Positions 1,066-1,380 of a stretch of DNA of 1,380 bases are shown here, piece after piece. The notes below the pieces were generated by a model. The model had not been told where the DNA came from, made no database searches, and saw only the letters and a program-made list of their open reading frames with translations. The translations under genes were made by a program, and so were the position numbers. The DNA lies in NCBI GenBank assembly GCA_000004985.1, contig GG739433.1, one strand, 5' to 3'. Position 1 is the first letter of the stretch, and every line of letters starts with the position of its first letter. The DNA comes from Naegleria gruberi (Eukaryota).

Positions 1066-1137
1066 TCCCGTGTAGTCCAATGGCTAGGATACCTGGCTTT
1101 CACCCAGGAGGTCCGGGTTCAATTCCCGGCATGGGAG
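1066..1137 (+). tRNA. tRNA-Glu (anticodon UUC, at 1099-1101). 72 nt, no intron, CCA not encoded.
   Basis: Cloverleaf folded by hand. Acceptor stem TCCCGTG (1066-1072) pairs with CATGGGA (1130-1136), 6 Watson-Crick pairs plus one G.U, and discriminator G1137. D stem GTCC/GGAT with D loop AATGGCTA. Anticodon stem CCTGG/CCAGG (1092-1096 / 1104-1108) with loop CTTTCAC. Variable loop AGGT. T stem CCGGG/CCCGG with T loop TTCAATT. Internal Pol III promoter: A box TAGTCCAATGG (1073-1083) and B box GGTTCAATTCC (1116-1126), matching GGTTCGANTCC. The overall sequence is close to known eukaryotic cytosolic tRNA-Glu sequences, with the same D-arm and CCCGGGTTCGATTCCCGG-like T-arm. Confidence 0.92.
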
Positions 1138-1142
1138 AATCA

Positions 1143-1173
1143 TTTTGTTCATATGGGTTTTATGCCAATTTTT
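1143..1173 (+). terminator. Candidate Pol III termination zone for the tRNA: T4 at 1143-1146, T4 at 1158-1161 and T5 at 1169-1173.
   Basis: Oligo-T runs on the coding strand 6-36 nt past the tRNA 3' end. Which run is used depends on the species-specific minimum T length. Confidence 0.4.
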
Positions 1174-1328
1174 CCTTTATGAAGATGATGTTAATTTGTT
1201 TGAATGAGCAATCTTTAAAAAACCCACTCCAATACAAAGCACTGCTCAAGAGTGTGGCATATCGATATACTTCACATGTTACTAACAGAATTGATCAAGT
1301 TGATATCTGGCATTTTATGATAATAGAT

Positions 1329-1380
1329 GGCTACGGCCATATCACGATGAATACACCTCATCCCGTCCGATTGAGAAGTA
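1329..1380 (+). rRNA. 5S ribosomal RNA gene, 5' portion (first 52 nt). Truncated by the right edge of the window.
   Basis: GGCTACGGCCATATCACGATGAATACACCTCATCCCGTCCGATTGAGAAGTA aligns without gaps to the 5' end of budding-yeast 5S rRNA (GGTTGCGGCCATATCTACCAGAAAGCACCGTTTCCCGTCCGATCAACTG...). Helix I start G(G)YTRCGGCCATA and the invariant loop B/helix II segment CCCGTCCGAT sit at the correct spacing (29 nt between CATATC and GATY in both). The start coordinate is uncertain by about 1 nt. Confidence 0.8.

Follow-up and report, generated by a model that had tools for sequence, protein, structure and literature searches.

The question raised by this locus is whether a tRNA gene and a 5S rRNA gene that follow each other on the same strand form one transcription unit, members of a coupled cluster, or simply two neighboring genes of RNA polymerase III (Pol III). 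The window, by which we mean the whole stretch of DNA that was analyzed, is 1,380 bp long and represents one entire small unplaced scaffold of the Naegleria gruberi nuclear assembly. Three features were identified on it: an oxygenase open reading frame on the minus strand and, on the plus strand, a tRNA-Glu gene followed by the 5' part of a 5S gene (Table 1). At this one locus the tRNA-Glu gene comes first and the 5S gene second, co-oriented and 191 nt apart. The coordinates of the pair and of its spacer agreed with those given in the first-pass annotation, which had been made from the sequence alone.

Table 1. Coordinates of the features located on the 1,380-bp N. gruberi scaffold
Feature	Position	Strand	Sequence	Remarks
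2OG-Fe(II) oxygenase gene, N-terminal 227 codons	683..1	(-)		ATG at 683-681; stop-free; exits the left contig end
tRNA-Glu(UUC) gene	1066..1137	(+)		72 nt, intronless, CCA not encoded; ARAGORN and Rfam
Box A, tRNA internal promoter	1073..1083	(+)	TAGTCCAATGG	Read from sequence
Box B, tRNA internal promoter	1116..1126	(+)	GGTTCAATTCC	Read from sequence
Spacer	1138..1328	(+)		191 nt, AT-rich; between tRNA-Glu end and 5S start
Three T-runs	1143-1146 (T4); 1158-1161 (T4); 1169-1173 (T5)	(+)		Candidate tRNA terminators
AT-rich stretch	1312..1325	(+)	ATTTTATGATAATA	4-17 nt upstream of 5S start; includes the fourth T-run
Fourth T-run (T4)	1313-1316	(+)		Within the AT-rich stretch before 5S
5S rRNA gene, nuclear type, first 52 nt	1329..1380	(+)		RF00001; cut by contig end

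The identity of the tRNA gene was assessed with ARAGORN and Rfam. ARAGORN called a tRNA-Glu with the anticodon TTC at 1065-1138 on the plus strand, and RF00005 matched across its full model at 1066-1137 with a score of 67 bits (E = 4.6e-14). When the gene was read from 1066 to 1137, an acceptor stem of 7 bp and a discriminator G were obtained, which indicates that the start at position 1066, as proposed in the first-pass annotation, is correct. The minimum free energy (MFE) fold was a partial cloverleaf (z = -2.18) that contained the acceptor stem and the D, anticodon, and T hairpins, with a T stem of only 3 bp; the unconstrained MFE fold included an additional non-canonical helix and thus gave no canonical cloverleaf. 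In Pol III type-2 promoters, the consensus sequences of the internal elements are TRGCNNAGTGG for box A and GGTTCGANTCC for box B. The features of a nuclear type-2 tRNA gene were all present here, namely a model-based cloverleaf and anticodon, A and B boxes, and downstream oligo-T. A 43-mer of the gene gave no matches in prokaryote genomes and viral contigs.

The 5S gene is represented only by its first 52 nt. RF00001 matched this fragment on the plus strand over positions 1-54 of the 120-position model, with a score of 29.1 bits and an E value of 0.0014, and the match was flagged as cut at the 3' side. The score is below the gathering score of RF00001 (38 bits) only because 55% of the 5S gene falls outside the contig. 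To calibrate this value, a 5S gene from a metagenome (L040, 1876-1994) with a full-length score of 105.8 bits was cut at nucleotide 52, and its score decreased to 35 bits. A real 5S gene interrupted at this point is therefore expected to score slightly below 38 bits, and the value of 29.1 bits fits this range. The visible part comprises the 5' strand of helix I, loop A, the 5' strand of helix II, loop B, helix III, and loop C. In the RF00001 alignment, the conserved 5' half was intact, with CCAUA in loop A, GAA.ACACC in loop B, and AUCCCGUCCGAU in loop C, and the motif GAANACACCNNATCCCGTCCGAT of the fragment was common to 115 eukaryotic 5S loci from metagenomes. The internal control region of 5S genes, which consists of box A, IE, and box C, is located at about +50 to +97; in the window, this region, the three-way junction, and the closure of helix I all fall past base 1380. 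The earlier assignment of 1329-1380 to a 5S gene was upheld by these results; the call is sound, and the fragment is taken to be the 5' portion of a 5S gene of the nuclear type.

Sequence searches with the fragment were also carried out. A strict 25-mer from the 5S sequence gave no matches in metagenomes, and a second strict 25-mer gave none in viral contigs and none in prokaryote genomes. With a relaxed 5S pattern, 115 metagenome loci were recovered; none of these was from Naegleria, and the best agreed with the fragment at 39 of 52 positions in an ungapped comparison.

Positions 1371-1380 of the window read CCGATTGAGAAGTA, compared with CCGATTTGAGAAGTT in related recovered 5S genes; helix III is one T shorter, and the final base of the contig is A, not T. 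The change in helix III corresponds to a one-base deletion relative both to the Rfam consensus and to the 5S genes that bear GATTTG, and the fragment ends in ...GAAGTA instead of the GAAGTT of most 5S genes. These differences may be genuine for Naegleria, may mark a variant copy, or may stem from poor sequence quality where the contig ends. The deletion and the unusual end would also suit a dead relic that does not work as a gene, whether a copy damaged by truncation or mutation or a repeat derived from 5S, as would the visible length of only 52 nt and the fact that 15 of the 279 N. gruberi 5S copies listed in Table S1 of PMC3369914 are shorter than 110 nt. However, the score of the visible part is in line with that of a true 5S 5' end, the motifs of loops A, B, and C are intact, and the truncation lies exactly at the contig end, which indicates that it is a limit of the assembly and not a biological one. 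We consider a relic highly improbable. The contig probably stops within the 5S gene because the assembler was unable to cross this repeat, and a small scaffold that ends in a 5S copy is typical of assembly breakage by the 5S repeats of N. gruberi.

A search of the N. gruberi genome had identified 279 putative 5S genes, apart from the rDNA (PLoS One 2012, PMC3369914). We re-analyzed the coordinates of these 279 copies as given in Table S1 of that paper. The copies were spread over 117 scaffolds, and 40 of them were located on 39 of the small scaffolds numbered above 100. The gaps between neighboring copies had a median of 34 kb, the smallest being 462 bp and the next 1.1 kb, and the spacing was irregular. 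On this evidence, the 5S family of N. gruberi is dispersed and not tandem. Table 1 of the same paper lists 'tandem arrangement: yes' for the N. gruberi 5S genes, an entry that is contradicted by the coordinates in its Table S1. The rDNA plasmids of Naegleria carry only the 18S, 5.8S, and 28S genes, without 5S. The scattered copies and the 5S-less plasmids together indicate that a location of 5S outside the rDNA is the rule in N. gruberi.

These results bear on two statements of the first-pass annotation, which had remarked on the absence of an rDNA context and had discussed it in terms of yeasts and other fungi. The former was confirmed: no rRNA other than 5S was detected with Rfam in the 1,380-bp window, and no 18S/28S repeat surrounds the 5S gene, the flank of which is a protein-coding gene, so that an rDNA linkage of the Saccharomyces type does not apply. 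There was likewise no tandem repeat in the window, and the region upstream of the 5S gene consists of the tRNA gene and unique spacer, not of a tandem 5S array. The fungal framing has to be dropped, since a protein match of 100% identity shows that the DNA is from N. gruberi, in which 279 dispersed 5S copies are normal. The window 5S is one more member of this known dispersed family, adjoining an ordinary tRNA gene; it shares with the family described in PMC3369914 the organism, the kind of gene, and the location of many copies on small unplaced scaffolds. None of the entries in Table S1 had coordinates that fit the 52-nt fragment.

The protein-coding flank is formed by the oxygenase gene, which is oriented divergently from the tRNA gene. 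Its open reading frame matched PF13640 of Pfam (E = 1.4e-9), and its translation was 100% identical to the NCBI entry 'predicted protein, partial [Naegleria gruberi]'. Between the start codon of the oxygenase gene and the tRNA gene, a perfect 18-bp inverted repeat was observed (914-931, GGAAGATTGTCATAATTA; 965-982, TAATTATGACAATCTTCC), with a C-rich loop of 33 nt and the trinucleotide TAT on either flank. The hairpin formed by 914-982 was far more stable than shuffled sequences (z = -7.96), none of 200 of which was equally stable. This element may have arisen as a very small MITE-like insertion that duplicated a 3-bp target; alternatively, it may be a promoter element. In addition, an exact 11-nt direct repeat, CACCTCATCCC, is present at 597-607 in the oxygenase coding sequence and at 1354-1364 in the 5S fragment, and this is most likely a chance match.

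We examined the spacer for signals that would separate or connect the two Pol III genes. As a general rule, Pol III transcription stops at oligo-T, and T4 is a weak terminator for Pol III in some yeasts. The series of T-runs in the spacer (T4, T4, T5, and T4) was as described in the first-pass annotation, with the first three at slightly different coordinates. The first T4 begins 6 nt past the tRNA 3' end, and the first three runs are all located within 36 nt of it. Judging from the general oligo-T rule, these three runs are likely the terminators of the tRNA gene, one primary and the others back-ups. According to PMC3369914, N. gruberi 5S genes are about 117 nt long, contain an internal control region, and are preceded by a TATA box and followed by T-runs. 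The AT-rich stretch that includes the fourth T-run may correspond to this TATA-like element and not to a terminator. The RNA structure of the spacer was not unusual (z = +0.64; 148 of 200 shuffled sequences were equally or more stable), and the Rfam search of the spacer returned only snoRNA-like matches at chance level (snoZ165, E = 1.6). A hidden RNA in the spacer was rejected on the basis of this fold value and of Rfam E values of at least 1.6.

Co-transcription of the pair, as known from the yeast Yarrowia lipolytica, had been raised as a possibility. The dicistronic tRNA-5S genes of Y. lipolytica have a spacer of 4-7 nt and are made as one RNA, and the genome contains 108 full-length dispersed 5S copies and 9 fusions with tRNA-Glu (CTC) (2008, PMC2566860). 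The N. gruberi locus resembles this system in the tRNA-then-5S order on the same strand, in the dispersed 5S family, and in having tRNA-Glu among the leaders. It differs in that the leader is Glu(UUC) in an amoeba and not Glu(CTC) in a fungus, and in that the 5S gene does not follow the tRNA gene after 4-7 nt but after a spacer of 191 nt with four T-runs. If the arrangement worked as in Yarrowia, Pol III would leak from the tRNA promoter through the T-runs into the 5S gene, which would provide TFIIIA-independent expression. In favor of this, TFIIIA was undetected in N. gruberi (PMC3369914), the T-runs are short (T5 at most), the tRNA precedes the 5S on the same strand, and the principle works in Yarrowia, also with tRNA-Glu as the leader. 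Against it stand the length of the spacer, the four runs of at least T4 of which the first follows the tRNA so closely, and the report in PMC3369914 that N. gruberi 5S genes possess a TATA box and an internal control region of their own. We attach very little probability to read-through or a dicistron at this locus. Between the two possibilities that the first-pass annotation had left side by side, independent units or a leaky read-through unit, independent units were better supported by the three T-runs near the tRNA end; Yarrowia-like co-transcription was not borne out by the spacer length and the succession of T4, T4, and T5 behind the tRNA.

Sharing of transcription factors between the two genes had also been suggested. 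In the type-2 mechanism, a tRNA gene is occupied by TFIIIC, which positions TFIIIB upstream of that same gene. TFIIIB would accordingly sit upstream of the tRNA and not 200 bp downstream, and therefore shared TFIIIC/TFIIIB loading of tRNA and 5S does not follow from the known geometry. A partial precedent is offered by the snRNA genes of trypanosomatids, whose promoters use A and B boxes within an upstream tRNA-like region; TFIIIA has not been found in trypanosomatids. The tRNA or tRNA-like promoter element in these organisms is divergent, lies about 100 bp upstream, and also drives 7SL RNA. The N. gruberi locus is similar in that tRNA A and B boxes are located a short distance upstream of a small-RNA gene, in a member of Discoba without a known TFIIIA. 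It differs in that the tRNA is co-oriented, the B box lies ~200 bp upstream, and the target is 5S and not an snRNA or 7SL gene. That Naegleria systematically parks 5S genes downstream of tRNA genes and expresses them through tRNA-bound TFIIIC/TFIIIB or through low read-through seems quite improbable to us.

Among the known systems, the Pol III gene clusters of Leishmania major, a member of Euglenozoa, are the best analogue. In L. major, each of the 11 5S genes has a dispersed location and is found with tRNA genes (Padilla-Mejia et al. 2009, PMC2695483), and the mean intergenic distance between the Pol III genes of this organism is 202 bp (PMC2695483), as against 191 bp at the N. gruberi locus, where the 5S gene is likewise within a few hundred bp of a tRNA gene. 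In both cases 5S is dispersed beside tRNA genes and is neither tandem nor carried by the rDNA, both hosts belong to Discoba, and TFIIIA was not found in either lineage. The two differ in that Leishmania has 11 5S genes, all linked to tRNAs, and Naegleria ~279, and in that the Leishmania clusters contain 2-10 tRNAs together with snRNA genes, whereas one tRNA is visible in the Naegleria window. In the Leishmania relatives Trypanosoma brucei and T. cruzi, 5S genes are in tandem arrays without tRNA linkage (PMC2695483), which indicates that the Leishmania arrangement is not a fixed or general trait of Discoba. No report of a tRNA-5S linkage in Naegleria was found in the literature covered, and PMC3369914 does not mention tRNA neighbors of the 5S genes.

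The N. gruberi genome is about 41 Mb in size. It contains 924 tDNAs (PMC2888827). From the 924 tDNAs, the 279 5S genes, and this genome size, we estimated how often a co-oriented tRNA gene ends within 300 bp upstream of a 5S gene at random. The expectation was 0.9 pairs genome-wide, and ~2.4 pairs if both classes of genes are restricted to 40% of the genome; a single tRNA-5S pair is therefore unsurprising at the genome scale. In the re-analyzed coordinates, 32 gaps between 5S genes were shorter than 5 kb, compared with ~9.5 expected at random, and neighbors at 1.5-5 kb, a distance of about one protein-coding gene, were in roughly threefold excess over random. Given this excess, the distribution of Pol III genes may be clustered, and chance would then not fully account for the adjacency.

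As a rough outside comparison, 109 5S copies from metagenomes were scored, 99 of which had at least 372 nt of upstream sequence. Among these 99 copies, a co-oriented tRNA gene within 300 bp upstream was present at only 5 loci, all from one lineage. These are freshwater metagenome contigs of a GC-rich eukaryote, represented by L108 350-6027 (also L080, L040, L057, and L077). They carry ~45 tRNA genes on both strands within ~5.5 kb, separated by spacers of a short simple repeat that is translated as KTRQD.../LSCLV..., and were without a protein-coding gene. The last tRNA gene of the array, tRNA-Asp(GTC), is followed after 161 bp by a full-length 5S gene in the same orientation, which scored 105.8 bits. 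In no other lineage of the 115 5S loci was a tRNA gene located a short distance upstream. Thirteen other contigs, labeled VFQM/VFQO and derived from one organism (L037, L042, L045-L047, L049, L062, L065, L068, L070, L072, L084, and L090), carry one 5S gene each. Helix III of these genes (CACCTCATCCCGTCCGATTTGAGAAG) differs from that of the window solely by an extra T. ARAGORN detected no tRNA on any of the 13 contigs, and this set seems to be a further dispersed 5S family, one not linked to tRNA genes.

A cluster of the Leishmania type would mean that Naegleria 5S genes lie non-randomly beside tRNA genes at ~200 bp, each gene with its own start and stop, and that what they share is chromatin, nuclear position, or Pol III recycling. 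The tRNA association of every L. major 5S gene at a similar mean distance, the excess of short gaps between N. gruberi 5S genes, and the 5S gene behind the last co-oriented tRNA of the 45-tRNA array in the L108-type lineage are in line with such a cluster. On the other hand, the Naegleria evidence comes from a single locus, although chance would give ~1-2 such pairs in the genome, the 5S genes in both T. brucei and T. cruzi occur in tandem and unlinked to tRNAs, and tRNA-5S proximity among the metagenome copies was limited to one lineage. We regard this arrangement as possible but unlikely.

The locus is best explained as two ordinary, most likely independent Pol III genes in one intergenic region of an N. 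gruberi scaffold, a reading that we consider probable. The A and B boxes within the tRNA-Glu(UUC) gene would drive it via TFIIIC, which would then place TFIIIB upstream, and transcription of this gene would most likely terminate at the T4/T4/T5 series, 6-36 nt past the 3' end. The 5S gene, as one of ~280 dispersed copies, would most likely have its own start, directed by the internal control region and the AT-rich upstream element. Their adjacency could be attributed to a compact genome in which ~1200 Pol III genes share limited intergenic regions, perhaps with some regional clustering. The weakness of T4 as a terminator in some yeasts, the undetected TFIIIA, and the excess of 5S neighbors at 1.5-5 kb weigh against this reading.

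The gain from this locus is the annotation of a single tRNA gene and of one more copy of 5S on a small unplaced Naegleria scaffold, which as it stands matters little. RNA genes that are not seen by tracks of open reading frames can nevertheless account for 'empty' intergenic DNA and for contig breaks. If the 5S genes of Naegleria were habitually tied to tRNA genes, this, together with Leishmania and with the lack of a recognizable TFIIIA in both, would hint at an ancient alternative in how 5S transcription is organized or driven in Discoba. Were it true that 5S genes are parked behind tRNA genes, the arrangement would suggest a Discoba-wide, TFIIIA-free synthesis of 5S rRNA that links the Leishmania clusters with the snRNA promoters of trypanosomatids.
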